A stretch of DNA of 64,000 nucleotides from Bacilli bacterium (lineage in GTDB: Bacteria > Bacillota_I > Bacilli_A > RF39 > UBA660), in contig JAFSFI010000010.1 of NCBI GenBank assembly GCA_017435255.1, positions 170,483-234,482 on the forward strand. The letters are read 5' to 3'. Position 1 is the stretch's first letter. Each line of letters begins with the position of its first letter. Shown here one piece after another: positions 38,207 through 64,000 of this stretch. Position numbers and translations under genes: made by a program. The notes beneath the pieces are model-generated. The model saw only the letters and a list, made by a program, of their open reading frames with translations. It made no database searches and had not been told where the DNA came from.

Positions 38207-38297
38207 TATAAGAAATTAACTTATTAAGTTAATTTTTTTTATTGCAATAAACAAGGAAAAAAGATATAATAAAATTATATAATTGGGGACTGATATT

Positions 38298-40490
38298 ATG
38301 AGATTTTTAAGGAAGATGAAATGGAGTAAAAACAAGATATTTACAGTATCAATGATAGTGTTAGTTTTTGTTATGAGCCTAGGGTATGCGGCTTTATCCC
38401 AATTTATAGAGATTGATGGAATAGCCATGGTTGATAGAAGTTGGATTGTAAAAGTAACTAATGTAACTAGTAGTGCAACAGGTTCAGGAATAGATAAAAG
38501 TCATTCTTATGCTAGTACTACAGCAACAATGAATGCAGTTATTCCGAATAAAGAATCAACAGTAACATATACAATTACATTACAAAACCAGGGTAATTTA
38601 GTGGCAAAGCTTAGTATGATAGATAGAATCGAAGATGATAATACGGGTATAACTTATACAATATCTGGCGTTACTGAGGGCGAAACAATTTTAAAACCGG
38701 GACAAACAAATACTGTATTAGTTACTATAAAATATAGTGAGGGTGTAACTAATGTAGGAAATATCGATAAAAGTTTGATGTTAACTTTTAACTATGTAGA
38801 GGATAGCCAACAAAGTATAATTGGAGGTAACACAGTAACTGTTGGTACAAATAACAAAGAATATAATGCGGGTGATTATGTAACTTTAGTTAATGGAACT
38901 AGATGGTATGTATTAAAAGATACTGGATCTAATGAAGAGTTAGTAACTTTAATATCGGATGATTATCTTCCTGAAATAGCTTTTGATACAACAGGAAGTG
39001 TAAATTACAATCCTAATTCAAGCACAAATATAGCATATTATATAGATAATACTTATATTCCGTCTATTGCTATGTCGGTAATGAACTATAGTCCATTTGG
39101 AGGTAATGCAACAGGAATAACTGGTAGATTGGTAACTAGTGATGAGGTCATGTCATTTTTACAATTATATGCTGAAGGAAAAATTGATCCATATTTACCT
39201 TATGCATTTTGGACAATGACATCAGCGGATGAATCTAGTGTATATGCATTTAGAAATGGAGCTATAACACCAGTTTCTGCTACGGAAAGCATAAGAATAA
39301 AACCAGTTATAACAATATTAAAAAGTAATATTCTTCCTAAAGAATTAGGAAATAGAGTTATTGCAACAAATGTATCATATGCAGATAATGTAGCAAGTGC
39401 ATATGTAAGTAATGCAACAGGAATAGATTTTAGTCAAGCAGCTAGTGATACAAATGGAAAAGGATTGTATTATACATCAACAAATACTGAAGATAATAAA
39501 AAAACATATTATTTTAGAGGAGATGTTGATAATAATTATGTTTCATTTGGAAAAACAAATGTTGAAAAATTTGTTTGTATGTATAATGGAGAAGAAATAA
39601 CTCACTATGATGGAGTAACAGAACTCGATGAAGGTACATGTGCACATGTGTGTAAATTATCAGATGGTAAATATGTAACAGGAGGGTATTTCCCAGATTG
39701 GTTTTGTACAGATAATCTAGGTGGTACTTACATGGGTGCCGTCGCAAGCCGCCAAACTGTGTATGTGGAAGAATCGCGTCTATGGAGAGTAGTAAGAATA
39801 AACGAAGATGGAAGCGTTAGATTAATAACAGCAGATACTGTTGGGGAAACATCTTTTAATTCATCGGCTGGAGATAATGCATATGTAGGATATATGTATG
39901 GAACACCGGGAAGCGCTAGTTATAGTGATACACATAAAAATGCTAAAAACAGTATAATAAAAACATATTTAGATAATTGGTATAATAGTAATTTATCAAG
40001 TTATTCTTCTTATTTAGCGGATGCAGGGTTCTGTAATGATAGAAGTGTAGCACCAACCGCTGGAGTTTGGGCAGAATTTGATACAGCTTTAGGATACGGA
40101 ACAAACGATACATCTTATGGCCTTACCGGAAGAGGAAATCAGCCTCAATTTAAATGCCCACAAAATAACGATTTATTTACACTTGCATCAAGTAGTAAAG
40201 GTAATAAGAGTTTAACTTATCCGGTAGGTCTTTTAACAATCGATGAAGTAAGGTATGCAGGCTTAAGTAACACTTATTTAAATAATGATACTTATTGGTG
40301 GACAATGACTCCAGATTTATATTATGGCATAGGGCCTGGAGCAGCAGTTAAATTTTTTGCCAATGGAATCAATGGCGGTCCTGTTGCTAGCGATCTTGGT
40401 GTTCGTCCAGTAATAAATTTAAATTCTAATGTCATTATTGAAGAAAATGGTGCTAACGGAACAATAAGCAACCCATATGTAATTAAATGA
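38298..40490 (+). CDS. Large secreted protein: N-terminal TasA/CalY-like module plus C-terminal surface domains
   Basis: SLGYA|ALSQFIEIDG...W...QNQGNLVA resembles the 58-60 kb paralogues; later WYVLKD / WRVVRINEDG...VRPVINL domains. Confidence 0.72.
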   Translation: MRFLRKMKWSKNKIFTVSMIVLVFVMSLGYAALSQFIEIDGIAMVDRSWIVKVTNVTSSATGSGIDKSHSYASTTATMNAVIPNKESTVTYTITLQNQGNLVAKLSMIDRIEDDNTGITYTISGVTEGETILKPGQTNTVLVTIKYSEGVTNVGNIDKSLMLTFNYVEDSQQSIIGGNTVTVGTNNKEYNAGDYVTLVNGTRWYVLKDTGSNEELVTLISDDYLPEIAFDTTGSVNYNPNSSTNIAYYIDNTYIPSIAMSVMNYSPFGGNATGITGRLVTSDEVMSFLQLYAEGKIDPYLPYAFWTMTSADESSVYAFRNGAITPVSATESIRIKPVITILKSNILPKELGNRVIATNVSYADNVASAYVSNATGIDFSQAASDTNGKGLYYTSTNTEDNKKTYYFRGDVDNNYVSFGKTNVEKFVCMYNGEEITHYDGVTELDEGTCAHVCKLSDGKYVTGGYFPDWFCTDNLGGTYMGAVASRQTVYVEESRLWRVVRINEDGSVRLITADTVGETSFNSSAGDNAYVGYMYGTPGSASYSDTHKNAKNSIIKTYLDNWYNSNLSSYSSYLADAGFCNDRSVAPTAGVWAEFDTALGYGTNDTSYGLTGRGNQPQFKCPQNNDLFTLASSSKGNKSLTYPVGLLTIDEVRYAGLSNTYLNNDTYWWTMTPDLYYGIGPGAAVKFFANGINGGPVASDLGVRPVINLNSNVIIEENGANGTISNPYVIK

Positions 40491-56986: not shown

Positions 56987-57005
56987 AATAGTGGGTGATG
57001 GAAGG

Positions 57006-58145
57006 ATGTTAGATATAATGAGTATAAAAAATAAAACCATGTTATTATCTAATCTATCTTTTGATCACCCTTTGTCATTACAAGAAATAAATGACTTGAT
57101 AAATATGTTATCTCAGGGAGTTTTAATTGGACAAATATATTTTAAAGATGAAGTGGATGTAGAAAGTATTGAAAAAGTTAAACTACTATTGGAAGTGTTG
57201 CCAAATATAGATGACAAAAAGATAGAAAAATATATTATGAGAAAAATCGATGATGATGATAAAAATAAGCTGGACAAATTGACCTTTCAAAATATTGATA
57301 CATGGAATATTGCGTATTCTATAGAACATAATAGATTTTCAGTTACTAGTTTAGCTAAATATCGTTTAATTGATGAGTGGTTTAAAAGCACTATAAAAGA
57401 AATGCCTGAAGGATTGTCTTGCTTAGAAAAAGTTTGTTATCTATATGATAAGGTAAAACTGTTTGAATTTAGCACAAATCCTAAATATGGAAGATTACCA
57501 GAAATAATATCTGATGGAGTAGCTAATTCATATGGGTACAATTTATTATTTAAAGAACTTTTAACAATGTGTAAAATACCTTGTAAAACGGAACCGTATT
57601 CAATTGATGGTGAAGAAAGTTATATAACTCTAGCAGAATTGTACGATGAAAAACATGGTGTAGATGGTATTTATTTGTTTGATGCTTCTATGGATACGAT
57701 TGGTAAAGAGCAATATAAGAATGGATTAGCTAGAAGAATGAATTATAATTTTTGTGCGATTACGTTAGATAAATTTTCGAGATTAAATGGACAAGTTTTT
57801 CCAGGAGGGATATTAAGAGTATTAATGGCTGAAGATGAACTTGAATATAAGCATAATTTAAATAGGTATAATAAAAAAAATGGATACAAAGAAAGTTTGA
57901 AAACTGAAAATATATTCCAAGAAAAAATAGATAATGTTTATTTAAAATGTTTTAATACAAAAGATATAAATGAAGAAACACTGTTTAACGTTTTCTCTGA
58001 AAGAGTAAACTGTTTGTCGAGAAATATAGAAGAAAGAGAAATTTTACAGGCTACTTTAATTAATAATTATAAAGATAGAGAAAAAGACTTGTTTGCAGAT
58101 AAATCTGTAAAGAAAATGTCAAAAAACAATCTATTAAGTGCATAA
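57006..58145 (+). CDS. Hypothetical protein with degenerate transglutaminase-like region
   Basis: LSCLEKVCYLYDKVK...GVANSYGYNLLFKELL...GIYLFDASMD resembles the TG-like fold; catalytic Cys/His not evident. Confidence 0.5.
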   Translation: MLDIMSIKNKTMLLSNLSFDHPLSLQEINDLINMLSQGVLIGQIYFKDEVDVESIEKVKLLLEVLPNIDDKKIEKYIMRKIDDDDKNKLDKLTFQNIDTWNIAYSIEHNRFSVTSLAKYRLIDEWFKSTIKEMPEGLSCLEKVCYLYDKVKLFEFSTNPKYGRLPEIISDGVANSYGYNLLFKELLTMCKIPCKTEPYSIDGEESYITLAELYDEKHGVDGIYLFDASMDTIGKEQYKNGLARRMNYNFCAITLDKFSRLNGQVFPGGILRVLMAEDELEYKHNLNRYNKKNGYKESLKTENIFQEKIDNVYLKCFNTKDINEETLFNVFSERVNCLSRNIEEREILQATLINNYKDREKDLFADKSVKKMSKNNLLSA

Positions 58146-58200: not shown

Positions 58201-58229
58201 TTGAATTTTAAAAAAAACTTTGATACAAT
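58201..58229 (+). promoter_or_regulatory. SigA promoter, fibre subunit 1
   Basis: TTGAAT-N17-TACAAT with TG extension. Confidence 0.7.
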
Positions 58230-58258
58230 TAATACATAAAATAAAGGAGGAAAAGAAA

Positions 58259-58816
58259 ATGAGAGATAGTAAAAATTTAGTTATTGGTATGCTTTGCGCA
58301 GTAGTTTGCATTATGGCTGTTGCGTATGCTGCATTTAGTACAACATTAGAAGTTAATGGTACTGCAACAATTTCATCAAATTGGAAAGTAGGATTCACAG
58401 ATATTACTTGTACAGCAACTGAAGCAGAAGGTGGAGCTACTTCTATCACTGTTGGTGAAGAAACGGTTGAACTTGAAGCTAATGGTGCATTAGTTGGTGA
58501 AGCTGGTACTAGTACTTCTGCTACTTTCGATGTAACTTTCTTACAACCAGGAGATTCTGCTGTTTGTACAGTTACAGTAAAAAATAGTGGAACATTAAAT
58601 GCTAAAGTAGAAACATTAACAGTTACTAATCCAACAGGTGGAATCATTACTTATGTAGTAGACAGTATTGCTCAAGGTGATAAATTAGCTGCTGGAGCAT
58701 CTGATACATTTACAATAACTGCTACATACGATGATACAGAAGAACAACCAGAAGACGAAGCATTAAGTAAAACTTTAACAATTACTGCTGTTTATTCACA
58801 AGATTTATCAGCATAA
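58259..58816 (+). CDS. TasA/CalY-like secreted fibre subunit 1
   Basis: AAAGGAGG RBS; AVAYA|AFSTTLEVNGTATI, QPGDS, KNSGTLNA; Cys pair; own terminator at about 58836-58865. Confidence 0.75.
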   Translation: MRDSKNLVIGMLCAVVCIMAVAYAAFSTTLEVNGTATISSNWKVGFTDITCTATEAEGGATSITVGEETVELEANGALVGEAGTSTSATFDVTFLQPGDSAVCTVTVKNSGTLNAKVETLTVTNPTGGIITYVVDSIAQGDKLAAGASDTFTITATYDDTEEQPEDEALSKTLTITAVYSQDLSA

Positions 58817-58885
58817 GTTTAATAGAAGTTTGATTACAGGCACATAAATACGTGCTTGTTTTTTTATTATAAAAATAAATATTTA

Positions 58886-58913
58886 TTGATTTTATTTTAC
58901 GATATGATATAAT
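58886..58913 (+). promoter_or_regulatory. SigA promoter, fibre subunit 2
   Basis: TTGATT-N16-TATAAT with TG extension. Confidence 0.7.
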
Positions 58914-58942
58914 TAAATTATAAAAAATAGGAGGAGAAAGAA

Positions 58943-59509
58943 ATGAAAGATAGTAAAAATTTAGTTATTGGTTTATTATGTGCGGTAGTTTGTATTATGG
59001 CAGTGGCATATGCTGCATTTGCTACAACATTAAATGTTAATGGTACTGCAACAATCGCATCAAACTGGGATGTTCATATCAGTAATATTTCTTGTAAAGC
59101 TACACCAGTTGAAGGTGGAACAACAGATGCAGAAGCAGTTACAAAAAGCTTTGGAGCTACAACTGCTCAATTTAACATGAAGTTTTTCCAACCAGGAGAT
59201 TCAGCTGAATGTGTAGTAACTATTACAAATAGTGGTACATTAGATGCAAAAGTAAGTACAATTGAAACAATTATTACAGATGCCAATAATAATACAAATA
59301 AAACTGATGAAACTTTAACTTTAGAATCAGATGCAATTCGTTATAATTTGTCTGGAATTGTTGAAGGAACTACATTAGCTGCTGGACAAACTAACACATA
59401 CACAATTAGTGCTGAATTCTTTGATGTAGCTAACGGACAAACTCCATCAGAAGATCAATTAAGTAAAACAGTAACTGTTAATGTTACTTATGAACAAGAT
59501 TTAGCTTAA
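58943..59509 (+). CDS. TasA/CalY-like secreted fibre subunit 2
   Basis: AVAYA|AFATTLNVNGTATI, QPGDS, TNSGTLDA; Cys pair; terminator at about 59519-59546. Confidence 0.75.
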   Translation: MKDSKNLVIGLLCAVVCIMAVAYAAFATTLNVNGTATIASNWDVHISNISCKATPVEGGTTDAEAVTKSFGATTAQFNMKFFQPGDSAECVVTITNSGTLDAKVSTIETIITDANNNTNKTDETLTLESDAIRYNLSGIVEGTTLAAGQTNTYTISAEFFDVANGQTPSEDQLSKTVTVNVTYEQDLA

Positions 59510-59555
59510 TTAAATTAGAAGATATACTTAGTTATATCTTTTTTTTATAAAAATA

Positions 59556-59584
59556 TTGTGTTAATTATTTAATCATGATAAAAT
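59556..59584 (+). promoter_or_regulatory. SigA promoter, fibre subunit 3
   Basis: TTGTGT-N17-TAAAAT with TG extension. Confidence 0.55.
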
Positions 59585-59611
59585 ATTCTTATAATAATAA
59601 AGGAGGAAATT

Positions 59612-60124
59612 ATGAAAGATAAAGGTGTATTAATCGGAATGTTATGTACTGTAGTTGTAGTTATGGCAGTTGCTTTTGCTGCATTTAGTACTTCACTACA
59701 AGTTAATGGTACTGCAACAATTGCATCGACTTGGAAGGTAGCGTTTGATAAGTCAAACTCAAGCTGTTCTGATGGAAGTAATATTGTTATGAATGGAGAA
59801 TCTACATTAGCTACAATTGGTGTATCTTTAGAAACTCCAGGGGATTCAGTAACATGTACTTTGGCTGTAAAAAACTCTGGAACACTTGATGCGTATTTAA
59901 AATCAATCAATGTTACTCCTACAGGAGATGCTCCAATAACATTTACTGTTGAACCAAGTACAACAGCTTTAGCTACTAGACCAACATTGGCAGCAAATGG
60001 TGGAGTTGAGTACATTAAATTAACAGCAACTTATGATGCTGATACGGAAGGACAACCAGAAGATTTAACAAACTCTGTAGTAATAGTTGCAAATTATGAA
60101 CAAAAATTAACAACAACTAACTAA
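59612..60124 (+). CDS. TasA/CalY-like secreted fibre subunit 3
   Basis: AVAFA|AFSTSLQVNGTATI, TPGDS, KNSGTLDA; Cys pair. Confidence 0.75.
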   Translation: MKDKGVLIGMLCTVVVVMAVAFAAFSTSLQVNGTATIASTWKVAFDKSNSSCSDGSNIVMNGESTLATIGVSLETPGDSVTCTLAVKNSGTLDAYLKSINVTPTGDAPITFTVEPSTTALATRPTLAANGGVEYIKLTATYDADTEGQPEDLTNSVVIVANYEQKLTTTN

Positions 60125-60204
60125 AATTAAAAGACAAAAAATAAGACTTTATAGTTTTATTTTTTTTTTGCCTATGATATAATTGTATACATAATAGGGG
60201 TGGT

Positions 60205-60564
60205 ATGATGCTAGGTAGGAAAGGTCAAGTATTAGTAGAATTTATTTTAATATTTCCAATTCTAGTTATGCTTCTTTTTGCTGTGGTAGATTTTGGTAGG
60301 ATTTTTGTTAATCAAAGCGAATTAGAGACGGCTCTAGGCATTATCAACGATATCGATAGAGAAAGTATTAATGAACAAGTTTTGTATGATGAAATAAATA
60401 AAAATACAAAAAATAAAATAAATGTTTCTATCACTAATGAAGAAGATGGGTATATTAATATAATTTTAACTAGAAAGATAAATATTATTACTCCAGGTTT
60501 AAATTTAATATTATCATCCCCTTATGAAATTAAAACTAGTAGGGTGGTTAAATATGGACAATAA
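60205..60564 (+). CDS. tadE: TadE-like pseudopilin
   Basis: Class III signal RKG|QVLVEF; DFG motif. Confidence 0.85.
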   Translation: MMLGRKGQVLVEFILIFPILVMLLFAVVDFGRIFVNQSELETALGIINDIDRESINEQVLYDEINKNTKNKINVSITNEEDGYINIILTRKINIITPGLNLILSSPYEIKTSRVVKYGQ

Positions 60565-60916
60565 GGGTCAAGTTTTAATTATCTTTTTGCTGATTATTCC
60601 AGTTTTAATGTTGGGGGCTGTATATATAATTGATAATGTTTATATTGCGTATCATAATAACAAATTGAATGAAATAAATAACTTAGTTATTAATGATGCT
60701 GTAATAAATGATTTGAGCACTTCAGAAATAAGAGAATATATTAAAAAGAATGATGAAGGTATAGAAATAGAATTTATTTTAATTAGTACTGATAAAGTAG
60801 AGATAAAACTATCTAAAAAAATAAAAAGTTTATTTGGTATTGTAGTAGGGAAAAAAAGTTATACTATAAAGTCTAATAAGACAATGAAAATTATGGATAA
60901 GCCAATATATCAATAA
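60554..60916 (+). CDS. TadG/TadE-like pseudopilin
   Basis: MDNKG|QVLIIF class III signal with hydrophobic helix; overlaps tadE. Confidence 0.72.
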   Translation: MDNKGQVLIIFLLIIPVLMLGAVYIIDNVYIAYHNNKLNEINNLVINDAVINDLSTSEIREYIKKNDEGIEIEFILISTDKVEIKLSKKIKSLFGIVVGKKSYTIKSNKTMKIMDKPIYQ

Positions 60917-60932
60917 ATGAGGATGTGATATT

Positions 60933-61727
60933 ATGCAAAAAACAAAAAAAGGTAAAATAATCACTATAACATCTATGAAAGGTGGAGTAGGTAAAACTAT
61001 TAGCACATTGCAACTTGCTATTATTATGAAAAAGTTAAATAAAAGCGTTTTAATAGTTGATTTAGATTTATATAATGGAGATATTGCATTTTCGTTAGAT
61101 ATAAACATTAAGTCTAGTGTTTATAATATTTGTGATGATGTTACGAATAACAGATATAAATCAGATTTGTTAAAAGAGTATATTGCTAAATATGATGAAT
61201 TTATTGATATTTTAGCGTCACCAAAAGATCCTAGACAAGCTACTAAAATAGATAGAAAATCTTTAGATATAATTTTAAGAAGTCTTAGCAATAAATATGA
61301 TGTTATATTAATTGATACTAATCATATATTGGATGTTGTTAATATGGTGGCGTTTGAATGTTCAGATATTATTTTAGATATCTTTACTAATGATGCATTT
61401 GATATTAAAAGGACAAAAAACTTTATATCAATTTGCAAAAATATGAAAGTAGATAATTTGAAATTAGTTTTAAACAATTCAATAGAGGATAGGAAAAAAT
61501 ATTTTAGTGAATATGATATAGAGTCAGTTATTAAAGATAAGATCGATTTTATAGTACCTAAAAGTTTTAATATAAAAGGTTTAGATAAATACATTGTAGA
61601 TGGAAAAACTATAGAAGTTTGTGAAAAAGTATTAAAAAACAGTTCAAAAGACTATGCGAAACTTTCACATTTTGCTCTTAGTTTATTAGAAGATAATAGA
61701 AAGGGTGATGAAAGTGAAAAAAAATAG
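60933..61727 (+). CDS. CpaE/TadZ-like ParA/MinD-family ATPase
   Basis: KGGVGKT, VDLDLYNGDI, YDVILIDT; directly upstream of cpaF. Confidence 0.8.
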   Translation: MQKTKKGKIITITSMKGGVGKTISTLQLAIIMKKLNKSVLIVDLDLYNGDIAFSLDINIKSSVYNICDDVTNNRYKSDLLKEYIAKYDEFIDILASPKDPRQATKIDRKSLDIILRSLSNKYDVILIDTNHILDVVNMVAFECSDIILDIFTNDAFDIKRTKNFISICKNMKVDNLKLVLNNSIEDRKKYFSEYDIESVIKDKIDFIVPKSFNIKGLDKYIVDGKTIEVCEKVLKNSSKDYAKLSHFALSLLEDNRKGDESEKK

Positions 61728-63099
61728 TTGGTTTGAGGAATTTGAAATATCTGAACAAAAAACAAACAATAATTATAGCAAATCGATTACTAATGATTAT
61801 GATATTTTTAAAGATAAAGAACTATTAGATAAATTTAGAAATACTATTATTCAAGAATTAATTGATAATCAAATACCTGATGAAAAATTACTTACTCAAT
61901 ATATTAATGAAGAGATAGATAGAATTACAGAAGGTTATGATTTATCTAATGTTGAAAGAAATCACATTTTTAATTTGATTGAAAATGAAATAAATGGTTT
62001 TGGACCAATTACAGAACTATTAGAAGATAAAAATGTTACAGAAATAATGGTAAATGGACCAGATGAAGTTTATATAGAAGTTGATGGTCAATTAATAAGA
62101 GATGATTCAGTATCATTCATTAATGATGAACATATTATTAGGACTATCCAAAGAATTGTACAACCTCTTGGTAGAACAATAGATTCTACTAATCCAATGG
62201 TTGATTCTCATTTGCCTGATGGCTCAAGAATTAATGCGATTATTCCACCTTTATCAGTTAAAGGACCGGTAATGACAATTCGTAAATTTAAAGAAAGTAT
62301 GAGTAACATAGATTCGCTTATTGGTAACGGAACTTTAACTCCGTACATGGCTAGATTTATGGATGCTTGTGTTGAAGCAAAACTTAACATAATAGTTTGT
62401 GGTGGAACAGGTAGTGGAAAAACAACGCTATTAAATGTTTTATCAAATTTCATTAATCCGGATGAAAGAATTATTACAATTGAAGATGCTGTAGAATTAA
62501 AATTAAAACAAACTCATGTAATATCTCTTGAAACTAGAAATGTTAATTATGAAAGAGAAGGAGAAGTAACAATTCGTGACTTAGTTAGAAACTCACTTCG
62601 TATGAGACCCGATCGTATTATTGTGGGTGAAGTTCGTGGAGAAGAAGCGTTTGATATGTTACAAGCGATGAACACAGGACATGATGGTTCCCTTACAACT
62701 CTTCATGCTAATTCAGCAATTGATGCATTAAACAGACTAGAAACAATGATTTTAATGGGTGGAATTGATATACCGTTAAAGGCAGTTAGAGATTATATAG
62801 AAAATGCAATTGATATAGTGATTAACATTGAAAGATTAGGAGACGGAAGACGTAAAGTAACAAGTATATCAGAAATAGTTGGTTTTGATGGGGAAAATAT
62901 TATTTTAAAAGATATTTTTGCCTTTCGCCAGAATGGGTTAACTGATAAAGGTGAAGTTAACGGAGAATTTATTCTTTATAATTATGTGCCTCTAGTATAT
63001 AGAAAGATAAGAAATAGAGGAGTTCATTCTGTTGATGATATTTTTGAACCTATAGAAAAAGATTTAGAAAAGAAAAATAAGAAAAAGAAAGAAGATTAG
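61705..63099 (+). CDS. cpaF: Tad secretion ATPase CpaF/TadA
   Basis: [55 protein letters not shown]. Start may be GTG 61714. Confidence 0.95.
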
Positions 63100-63110
63100 G
63101 AGGTAATACT

Positions 63111-64000
63111 ATGTCTAATAGTTATGATATTAATTTATTTGTTATACAATCGATTCTTATTATAATACTATTTGGCATAGTATTATGGTTAGTCAAATTA
63201 AGCAGAATTACTAGACTAGAAAGAAGATTTAGCAAATATTCAGTTAATGTAATTGAAAATAAAGAAATAGCTTTATTTGATAAACTAATAAGACTTTATA
63301 CAAAATTAAGAAAAAACATATCTAAATTTTTATATAAATTAAAAATATTTGATGAGTATAGTTTAAAATACGAAAAATATTGTGATAACGCTAGTGTTAT
63401 ACGAGAAGATCCGATGGATTATATGTCTACTAAAGTCTTAACTGGTTTTGCAATGATGATATTAATTGTCATATCTGATGTTTTTCAATATAAACCTATT
63501 ACATCTTTTCAACTATTAACCGCATTTTTAATAGGATTTTTTATACCTGATGTGTTGTTGATTTCTAAAGAAAAGATGCGAAAAAAACAAATAGAAAAAG
63601 ACATGTTAAAAGCAATTATTATTATGAACAACTCTTTTAAATCAGGACTTAGCATCATGCAAGCAATATATATGGTATCTAATGAATTAGATGGACCGAT
63701 TAGTGAAGAGTTTAAGAAAATGTATATAGATTTAAGCTTTGGACTAAATATGGAAGTTGTATTCGAGCGATTTACTAAAAGAATTGATACTAAAGAAGCT
63801 AGATATATTACTACTTCATTAAATGTATTAAATAAAACAGGGGGTAATATTGTCCAAGTATTTGCGTCTGTAGAAAGAAATTCTTTTACTAGAAAAAAAT
63901 TAGAAGAGGAATTAGGGGCGCTTGCAGCTAGTAGTAGTGCAATATTTAAGATATTAGTGGTAATTCCTGTATTATTATTTGCGACTGTTTTTGCACTGAA
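63111..64000 (+). CDS. tadB: TadB (T2SS-F family) membrane platform protein, 3'-truncated by the window
   Basis: Not in the ORF track. AGGAGGT RBS; MSNSYDINLF...SFKSGLSIMQA...GPISEEF...TGGNIVQVF. Confidence 0.87.
   Translation, partial: MSNSYDINLFVIQSILIIILFGIVLWLVKLSRITRLERRFSKYSVNVIENKEIALFDKLIRLYTKLRKNISKFLYKLKIFDEYSLKYEKYCDNASVIREDPMDYMSTKVLTGFAMMILIVISDVFQYKPITSFQLLTAFLIGFFIPDVLLISKEKMRKKQIEKDMLKAIIIMNNSFKSGLSIMQAIYMVSNELDGPISEEFKKMYIDLSFGLNMEVVFERFTKRIDTKEARYITTSLNVLNKTGGNIVQVFASVERNSFTRKKLEEELGALAASSSAIFKILVVIPVLLFATVFAL

Follow-up and report, generated by a model that had tools for sequence, protein, structure and literature searches.

A tandem array of probable AbpX-type fibre subunits beside a Tad locus in an uncultured genus of Bacilli

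The array and its neighbours

The window analysed here is a 64-kb stretch (64,000 nucleotides) of contig C7 from the genome of a Bacilli bacterium (assembly GCA_017435255.1), which has a size of ~1.0 Mb, 28% G+C, 15 contigs and a completeness of 88%. From position 58259 to its end, the window carries on one strand (+) three paralogous genes, named A1, A2 and A3, followed by tadE, the gene of a second pseudopilin, an ATPase gene in the tadZ position, tadA and tadB. The present work concerns the A1-A3 array, which probably encodes AbpX-type fibre subunits, and its relation to the Tad genes next door. The features of this region are the following.

58259..58816, + strand: A1, predicted AbpX-like fibre subunit of 185 amino acids (aa); ATG start after an AGGAGG ribosome-binding site, with a -10-like element upstream; signal at residues 1-24 ending AVAYA; predicted donor strand AFSTTLEVNGTATI; mature isoelectric point (pI) 4.05
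58836..58859, + strand: terminator-like hairpin and T-run 3' of A1 (consensus scan only)
58886-58913, + strand: promoter-like site ahead of A2 (consensus scan only)
58943..59509, + strand: A2, predicted AbpX-like fibre subunit of 188 aa; the copy used for folding and for the trimer model
59612..60124, + strand: A3, predicted AbpX-like fibre subunit of 170 aa
60205..60564, + strand: TadE-like pseudopilin (PF07811, E 2.1e-11), N terminus MMLGRKGQ/VLVEF
60554..60916, + strand: second pseudopilin (TadF-like), N terminus MDNKGQ/VLIIF; weak TadE likeness (tblastn E ~0.03)
60933..61727, + strand: ParA/MinD-type ATPase in the TadZ/CpaE position (AAA_31, E 1.7e-15; CbiA, E 4.8e-10)
61705..63099, + strand: TadA/CpaF secretion ATPase (T2SSE, E 2.5e-65)
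63111..64000, + strand: TadB platform protein of 338 aa, whose gene stops 127 bases beyond the window (T2SSF, E 2.3e-9)
Past the window: TadC, 235 aa (T2SSF, E 4.7e-17), then yebC

Each of the three array genes is preceded by its own ribosome-binding site and -10-like element, and A1 can also be read as a longer mechanical open reading frame (ORF) of 198 aa from a TTG start at 58220. The array ends 80 bases before the start of tadE, on the same strand. In the consensus scan, the number of promoter-like sites was not above chance (16 found against 18.9 +/- 5.1 in shuffles), while two terminator-like sites were found against 0.6 +/- 0.9. Among the Tad proteins, the second pseudopilin gave no match in the Pfam scan, the TadZ-position ATPase gave only generic NCBIfam matches, every one under its cut-off, and TadA scored 324 bits with TIGR03819, under the cut-off of 373 bits.

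Sequence, predicted fold and peptidase of the A1-A3 family

The signals of A1-A3 end in AVAYA or AVAFA and are followed by AF(S/A)T(T/S)LxVNGTATI; the motifs PGDS and NSGTL(D/N)A are also common to the three proteins, as is a single Cys pair in the mature part (C51 with C103, C90 or C82). The pairwise identity of 36-48% is far above chance. The mature proteins are acidic, with pI values of 4.05, 4.08 and 4.20 and Asp plus Glu contents of 14.3, 12.2 and 10.2% for A1, A2 and A3. Cleavage after A-(Y/F)-A would give a mature start of A-F-(S/A)-T, with the aromatic Phe in mature position 2, and this residue (F26) is kept by 90% or more of 56 family sequences. A sequence-only reading of the window had described three such paralogues of 170-188 aa, placed directly upstream of tadE, a second pseudopilin, a cpaE-position ATPase, cpaF and tadB; every trait that it listed is present and the gene order was confirmed.

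The signals were also compared with those of type IV pilins. A1-A3 gave no match to Flp_Fap or Class_IIIsignal in Pfam. The leader of A1 and A2 reads KDSKN-LVIG, with an Asn where prepilin peptidase needs Gly or Ala; K-G before the hydrophobic stretch occurs in A3 alone among the three, and K, T or N fills this position in the other paralogues. Glu5 is found in none of the family members compared, and the only conserved small residues of the leader region are those of the A/G-x-A that ends the hydrophobic stretch. A type IV pilin identity of A1-A3 was rejected on these signal features (no class III leader, no Glu5). The signals of A1-A3 contain no twin-arginine motif either, and a comparison with NCBIfam returned no SipW-signal or TasA-type model.

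The relationship of the family to solved fibres was explored using profiles. With a profile of 30 members, the first match among 177,635 PDB sequences was AbpX (9sj2; E 4.6e-4, 23.4 bits), in an alignment that spans profile positions 36-154 of 171; 9rhp came second (E 0.0029) and TasA (8aur, 5of1) followed with E ~0.2. A narrower profile also placed AbpX at the top (E 0.0066), with TasA next at E ~0.2. In this narrower search the alignment pairs the N-terminal strand of the family with that of AbpX, and the PGD...N-G-L core motif was aligned to TasA residues 18-52. These PDB sequence searches, run up to an E value of 10, listed neither AbpA nor Tafi chains. Judged by these alignments, A1-A3 most likely group with TasA and with the proteins of archaeal bundling pili, with AbpX as the best solved relative. 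They are new, unannotated and rather divergent members of the AbpX-type TasA-superfamily fibre: no Pfam or NCBIfam model matches them at its cut-off, and the similarity to AbpX is weak (E 4.6e-4) despite its top rank. About 100 relatives are present in public data, where none has a Pfam family and the sole name given by the source is "hypothetical protein."

The AlphaFold2 (AF2) monomer model of A2, with a mean predicted local distance difference test (pLDDT) value of 85.5, shows a helix at residues 4-26, a coil at residues 27-43 and then a beta sandwich. Fold searches returned only generic Ig-like or PapD-like sandwiches. Chains of TasA, AbpX and AbpA were absent among the matches listed by Foldseek against the PDB, by the wide VIA-align search and by VIA-align on the Foldseek top 1000, an absence that is no evidence of differing folds. 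One of nine structural neighbours in the ESM Atlas is a Peptidase_M73 cluster (TM scores of 0.61/0.59 over 154 residues), and the others include long Bacillota surface proteins with the domain at their N terminus.

These generic folds could also fit monomeric proteins, secreted or membrane anchored, of the Ig-like (CARDB/ASH) type, in which the N terminus would be a signal anchor and PGDS...N-G-L just a common sandwich motif. Sub-threshold Pfam matches to CARDB, DUF11, DUF7507 and HYDIN-like Ig domains, beside that to Peptidase_M73, point the same way, as does the fact that most family members are surface-protein-like chains of 400-800 aa. We consider a monomeric protein highly improbable, given that AbpX is the top solved relative in an alignment that covers the N-terminal strand and that the family is strictly linked to an AbpX-type peptidase and DUF5305, as described below. 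The model of three chains bears on the same question, since residues 27-43, which are coil in the monomer, fill the sandwich of the neighbour in the trimer, and this counts against the monomeric alternative.

Three copies of A2 residues 25-188 gave ipSAE values of 0.60, 0.61 and 0.60 in three runs, compared with 0.00 for the best of three controls; the ipSAE mark was calibrated on pairs (it was reached by 20 of 30 same-chain pairs and by 1 of 23 proteins solved as single chains), and the use of three copies and of a self-made alignment departs from that calibration. In the trimer, residues 25-43 of one copy contact the strands at 44-46, 73-84, 155-159 and 172-185 of the next. Agreement between the runs extends to at least 91% of contacts, with a partner pLDDT of at least 84. 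The model backs binding in silico rather than demonstrating it, and suggests that A2 probably polymerises by donor-strand complementation.

A candidate enzyme for signal removal was found on contig C13, where the gene of a fourth short paralogue (169 aa) is followed by that of a 382-aa signal peptidase I and by a DUF5305 gene (PF17231, E 1.4e-16). The peptidase matches the archaeal-type model TIGR02228 (E 2.6e-28) and has its S26 domain at the C-terminal end (residues 256-320). Its AF2 model (pLDDT 77.7) places ten helices ahead of the catalytic domain and was preferred to a hydropathy count of 5-6 helices, which is too low at the threshold used. Since the genome also encodes an ordinary bacterial signal peptidase, the long enzyme on C13 appears to be an extra, dedicated one. 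The order subunit(s), peptidase, DUF5305 was observed in all 11 loci fetched from 10 other genomes, and in three of these loci a family member of 612-782 aa comes next. Moreover, the family is present in 17 of 41 related genomes; the distribution of DUF5305 is identical, with these 17 genomes positive and the other 24 negative, and the full-length peptidase occurs in the same 17. The 41 genomes are related to each other, so these counts are not independent, but the match is nonetheless complete.

This arrangement resembles that of AbpX loci in archaea and Bacillota, which, in the accessible part of the preprint that describes them (bioRxiv 10.64898/2026.01.04.697558), comprise one or more fibre subunits, a dedicated signal peptidase I that has ten transmembrane helices, DUF5305, minor subunits and tip proteins. 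For AbpX-like proteins, that part of the preprint stresses a low pI, an aromatic residue at donor-strand position 2 and, at position 4, an acidic one (a calcium site); it also places AbpX and TasA in one superfamily and mentions DUF5305 in Tafi loci. The sequence-only reading had proposed a TasA-like donor-strand fibre released by SipW-type cleavage, and this proposal gains support from the rank of AbpX, from the occurrence of peptidase and DUF5305 in 17 of 17 genomes with the family, and from the trimer model. Of the checks that it suggested, the family searches left Peptidase_M73 below its cut-off and gave no SipW-signal or TasA-type match in NCBIfam, and the modelling of donor-strand complementation favoured it (ipSAE 0.60).

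Contig C13 also carries (L004 4153-5685, +) an ORF of 510 aa with a tail of ~70 residues that are almost all Cys, His, Glu, Asp, Gly or Asn. The CxC and HxC repeats of this tail look metal binding, and the rest of the ORF is, by eye, putatively like a class II aminoacyl-tRNA synthetase.

The Tad machine and its relation to the array

The array had been read as standing in the place of an Flp pilin, in a locus with no visible Flp, CpaB or prepilin peptidase. Whole-genome family searches agree for contig C7, where none of the three was found, but not for the genome. A canonical Flp pilin of 70 aa is encoded at C1:6088-6300 (-), with 38.2 bits for PF04964 against a cut-off of 32.2 and the N terminus KKGQ/ALVEY; its gene lies divergent beside a DUF192 gene. 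A prepilin peptidase of the PilD type (Peptidase_A24 with the bacterial N-terminal domain) is encoded on C4 beside a PilC-like gene. Of the genes that the sequence-only reading proposed to seek genome-wide, flp, the A24 peptidase and an archaeal-type signal peptidase were thus located, while for cpaB the sole RcpC match of the genome is only a sub-threshold candidate, at 26.1 bits against a cut-off of 28.8, in a different cluster on C1 away from the tad locus. To our knowledge, Gram-positive Tad loci may not need CpaB/RcpC. In a pattern scan of all ORFs of the genome, the KGQ leader was found only in Flp, TadE and the second pseudopilin, and the standard Tad set of TadA, TadB, TadC and TadE-type pseudopilins is assembled in one locus.

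Other secretion and pilus genes were observed on these and further contigs. On C4 (L005 5858-8058), the PilC-like gene, which has two T2SSF domains, overlaps the gene of the PilD-type prepilin peptidase, and two type IVa pilin genes (KKGFTLIELL) lie at C12:10992-12192. From the PilC-like gene, the PilD-type peptidase and the type IVa pilins it follows that the genome also holds parts of a type IVa or competence pilus, and its sole A24 peptidase may serve both these parts and Tad. The sub-threshold RcpC/CpaB-like protein belongs to a divergent secretion cluster at C1:62000-78000 (-), together with a P-loop ATPase ORF that is VirB11/TadA-like by eye, two small membrane proteins, an ORF of 597 aa and a secreted protein of 1041 aa. 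This cluster looks like a conjugation-type or Tad-like transfer system.

In other genera, none of eight tad loci carries a family gene (tblastn E up to 1e-3). In G020, flp is found immediately before tadE, and in G009 and G010 a DUF192-flp pair lies just upstream of tadE, with the same DUF192 neighbour as on C1. In G024 a different pilin precedes tadZ, unrelated genes lie upstream in G021, G017 and G011, and the locus of G013 ends at a contig end. TadE orthologues are present in every fetched tad locus that reaches the gene, and the position of the second pseudopilin is also kept in relatives. With flp found just upstream of the corresponding tad genes in three other genera, the simplest interpretation is that an ancestral flp-tadE locus was split and that, in the genus studied here, the array is merely a neighbour of tadE. 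Such a split is the most likely reason for the location of flp and prepilin peptidase elsewhere in the genome, and the description of the array as taking the place of an Flp pilin is not borne out. Two side observations were made in these loci: a 223-aa ORF lies between flp and tadE in G010 (L053 8648-9319), and in G024 the first gene of the Tad-like locus, of 140 aa, resembles a type IV pilin gene (L056 1573-1995; KKGFTLVE), in place of an Flp.

Within the genus, the order murF, ddl, 384-aa gene, array, tadE to tadC, yebC is kept in all seven other genomes fetched, with 3, 3, 3, 4, 4, 4 and 7 array copies. Synteny extends over the entire murF-yebC region, so the eight genomes that include the present one are not independent; a further locus search returned seven loci, all from metagenome-assembled genomes of the same genus, and no independent synteny was gained. 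Between species, the array copies are 33-65% identical, compared with 85-89% for TadA. A quick maximum-likelihood tree was built from 61 family domains with no row removed, two long proteins from the flanks of tad loci being kept outside the "tad" group. An A3-type clade of seven rows (support 100) contains one orthologue beside tadE in each of the seven genomes placed in the tree. Since the Tad-adjacent copies form a single clade with orthologous sub-clades, the array appears to have been duplicated in tandem before the species split and to have continued duplicating.

The 384-aa gene (56991-58145, +), which lies between ddl and the array, has no Pfam or NCBIfam family. It is found in the same position in the seven other genus genomes at 44-50% identity, and was not found in tad or peptidase loci of other genera.

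The family is expanded in the genus, with 18-46 matches per genome in eight other genomes and nine in the present one. Most copies are the N-terminal module of proteins of 400-800 aa, and two such members were seen just past yebC in other genomes, in ORFs of 463 aa (L042 6125-6613, G008) and 808 aa (L043 4458-4877, G004). Six further members are present in the genome studied here; three of them are long (492-735 aa) and share a C-terminal region without a Pfam family. The further members located are the following.

38283..40490 of the window, + strand: paralogue of 735 aa that begins with signal, donor strand and sandwich and has its family domain at residues 6-175; the long C-terminal part matched no family in the Pfam scan
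C5:54841-56580: further family member
C5:77981-79459: further family member
C13:92149-92691: further family member
C13:85207-85764: further family member

Taken together, these observations make it likely that A1-A3 are AbpX-type fibre subunits cut by their own peptidase and that Tad is a separate system, so that the locus would hold two adjacent surface systems and not a hybrid. The proteins would be exported by Sec, and the signal peptidase I of C13, with DUF5305, would remove the conserved signal at the inferred site after A-(Y/F)-A. Cleavage would free the strand AF(S/A)TxLxVNGTATI to insert into the beta sandwich of the next subunit, head to tail, and donor-strand complementation of this kind would give acidic, chaperone-free fibres. 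The array, with 3-7 diverged tandem copies per genome, probably supplies major or variant subunits, and the long paralogues with the N-terminal module probably enter these fibres too, either as decorated subunits or as terminal ones. The neighbouring Tad genes would form an ordinary Gram-positive Tad system that builds Flp pili independently.

Several observations weigh against this reading. The match to AbpX is marginal although it ranked at the top in both profile searches, and Peptidase_M73 (PF12389) reaches only 18.6, 16.1 and 12.9 bits against a cut-off of 22.5 (E 0.0017, 0.01 and 0.1 for A1, A2 and A3). The trimer score, besides its departure from the calibration, may reflect likeness to solved donor-strand polymers. 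Position 4 of the donor strand is Thr in A1-A3 and not an acidic residue; the alignment shows Glu there in some peptidase-adjacent relatives of other genera. The C13 peptidase adjoins the fourth short paralogue and not A1-A3. The array is found beside tad in all eight genus genomes where the locus was seen, and its 31 Tad-adjacent copies form one clade (Shimodaira-Hasegawa-like approximate likelihood ratio test support 96) with at least three orthologous sub-clades. Finally, the first 26 residues are almost invariant among the Tad-adjacent copies, which keeps a coupling to Tad alive.

The adjacency, the separate clade and the near-invariant N terminus also speak for an alternative in which the A1-A3 clade would have been recruited to Tad, either exported or assembled by TadA/B/C or displayed or anchored on the Flp pilus, in replacement of the adjacent flp. 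Such a near-invariant N terminus is seen in pilins, the array shares the strand of tadE and is separated from it by 80 bases in the window, its position is kept in all eight genomes, and A3 has K-G before its hydrophobic stretch. The invariance was traced further at the codon level. The first 42 codons of A1 and A2 differ at nine synonymous and five non-synonymous sites; the nine synonymous differences rule out recent gene conversion as its cause and indicate that selection acts on the N-terminal peptide itself. We read this as a constraint from the dedicated peptidase; selection on the peptide would also be compatible with coupling to Tad.

Recruitment to Tad is nevertheless very unlikely in our view. 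The genus genomes that show the adjacency share one syntenic murF-yebC region, and the eight tad loci of other genera lack the family. TadA was found in 16 of the 41 related genomes, 11 of which also have the family, and the two part in both directions: the family is present but TadA unmatched in six genomes (among them G007, with a completeness of only 67%), and the reverse holds for five. At the prepilin cut site A1 and A2 have Asn and the paralogues mostly lack Gly or Ala, Glu5 is missing, and small residues are conserved only in the A/G-x-A that closes the hydrophobic stretch, while a canonical Flp with a TadE-like KGQ site is present. The separate ribosome-binding site and -10-like element of each array gene and the terminator-like hairpin after A1 also speak for units of their own. 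We hold it equally improbable that an AbpX-like clade found only beside tadE was captured by the Tad locus to work with the pilus, for instance as a donor-strand fibre that the Flp filament anchors or primes, or that is secreted together with it; were this true, the dozens of longer paralogues would plug different heads into that scaffold.

Coupling of the array to Tad is thus judged unlikely. The sequence-only reading had favoured a hybrid appendage or a Tad machine that exports a foreign fibre, and it had named in advance two findings that would speak against this: adjacency that fails in relatives and a canonical flp. Within the genus the adjacency was seen in eight genomes; outside it, none of the eight tad loci shows it. 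A canonical flp exists, on C1 and not just past the window. Literature searches on AbpX and bundling pili, on DUF5305 and on TasA with Flp or tadE returned no link between a TasA-like fibre and Tad, the last of these being mostly noise and the result weak evidence.

The two systems could, however, form a co-regulated adhesion island, in which independent mechanisms are kept together by joint expression, Tad pili serving attachment and AbpX-like fibres the matrix. Tad pili serve adhesion and biofilm formation in other organisms, and adjacency and orientation are kept here while the copy number of the array varies from 3 to 7. AbpX-type fibres also serve adhesion or biofilm elsewhere, according to the accessible part of the preprint (bioRxiv 10.64898/2026.01.04.697558). 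No regulator or shared promoter was identified at the locus, where the candidate sites suggest separate units, with promoter-like sites not above chance. None of the listed sequencing runs that contain DNA of the window is on record as RNA, four gut DNA runs gave only short, fragmented contigs at the locus, and synteny from one genus is weak evidence. An island of this kind is unlikely, and two adjacent but independently working systems remain the preferred reading.

Comparison with known systems

The apparently pilin-less Tad locus with fibre genes in the place of the pilin is best described as a locus that was split and that has an unrelated fibre system as its neighbour. A likely function is thereby given to proteins that no Pfam family covers and that their source names only as "hypothetical protein." In a genus of uncultured gut Bacilli with genomes of 0.9-1.5 Mb (eight others), the family probably provides strand-swapped fibres together with a shared module of surface proteins, and would thus be a main part of surface building and attachment in the gut for bacteria with reduced genomes.

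The locus shares with Gram-positive Tad/Flp (type IVc) loci the standard set of tadE, second pseudopilin, tadZ, tadA, tadB and tadC, and the KGQ cleavage motif. It differs from them in that flp and the prepilin peptidase lie on other contigs, the A24 enzyme being PilD-type and beside a PilC-like gene, in that non-pilin genes stand upstream of tadE, and in that no CpaB was found with the locus.

In Bacillus subtilis, the TasA system includes the short form of signal peptidase SipW and TapA as partner of TasA. A1-A3 resemble TasA and camelysin in a signal that ends in small-x-small and is followed by A-F, in the aligned PGD...N-G-L core, in the archaeal/endoplasmic reticulum-type peptidase (TIGR02228) and in the Peptidase_M73 neighbour from the ESM Atlas. 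This is, however, a distant likeness, with TasA at only E ~0.2 and Peptidase_M73 below its cut-off, and the peptidase of the present system has a long N-terminal extension with multiple helices and a DUF5305 partner. AbpA, Tafi pili and Sulfolobus threads are also donor-strand fibres of the same superfamily, and Tafi loci carry DUF5305, as far as the accessible parts of their descriptions go. Tafi pili differ in being exported by Tat, according to the title of their report, whereas the signals of A1-A3 lack a twin-arginine motif.

The closest comparison is with AbpX of Pyrodictium abyssi and the AbpX-like loci of Bacillota and Chloroflexota, again judged from the accessible part of their description. 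AbpX is the best solved relative, and the systems have in common an acidic mature protein of ~150-165 aa and an N-terminal donor strand that is amphipathic and aromatic at position 2, a donor-strand polymer being predicted here. They also share an operon in which subunit(s) are joined by a many-helix signal peptidase I and DUF5305, and the presence of extra minor subunits and of long, "tip-like" relatives. The same source allows the differences to be set out. The similarity is weak here (E 4.6e-4), and no member has a Pfam family at cut-off. Strand position 4 is Thr in A1-A3 and not acidic, which makes a dependence on calcium doubtful. The A1-A3 genes are arrayed in tandem next to tad, separate from the peptidase gene, and the family reaches 18-46 copies per genome in eight other genomes of the genus, mostly as a module of long proteins. 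To the extent covered by that description, the AbpX class is extended to a new lineage, in which the small subunits are suited to tests of self-assembly in vitro.

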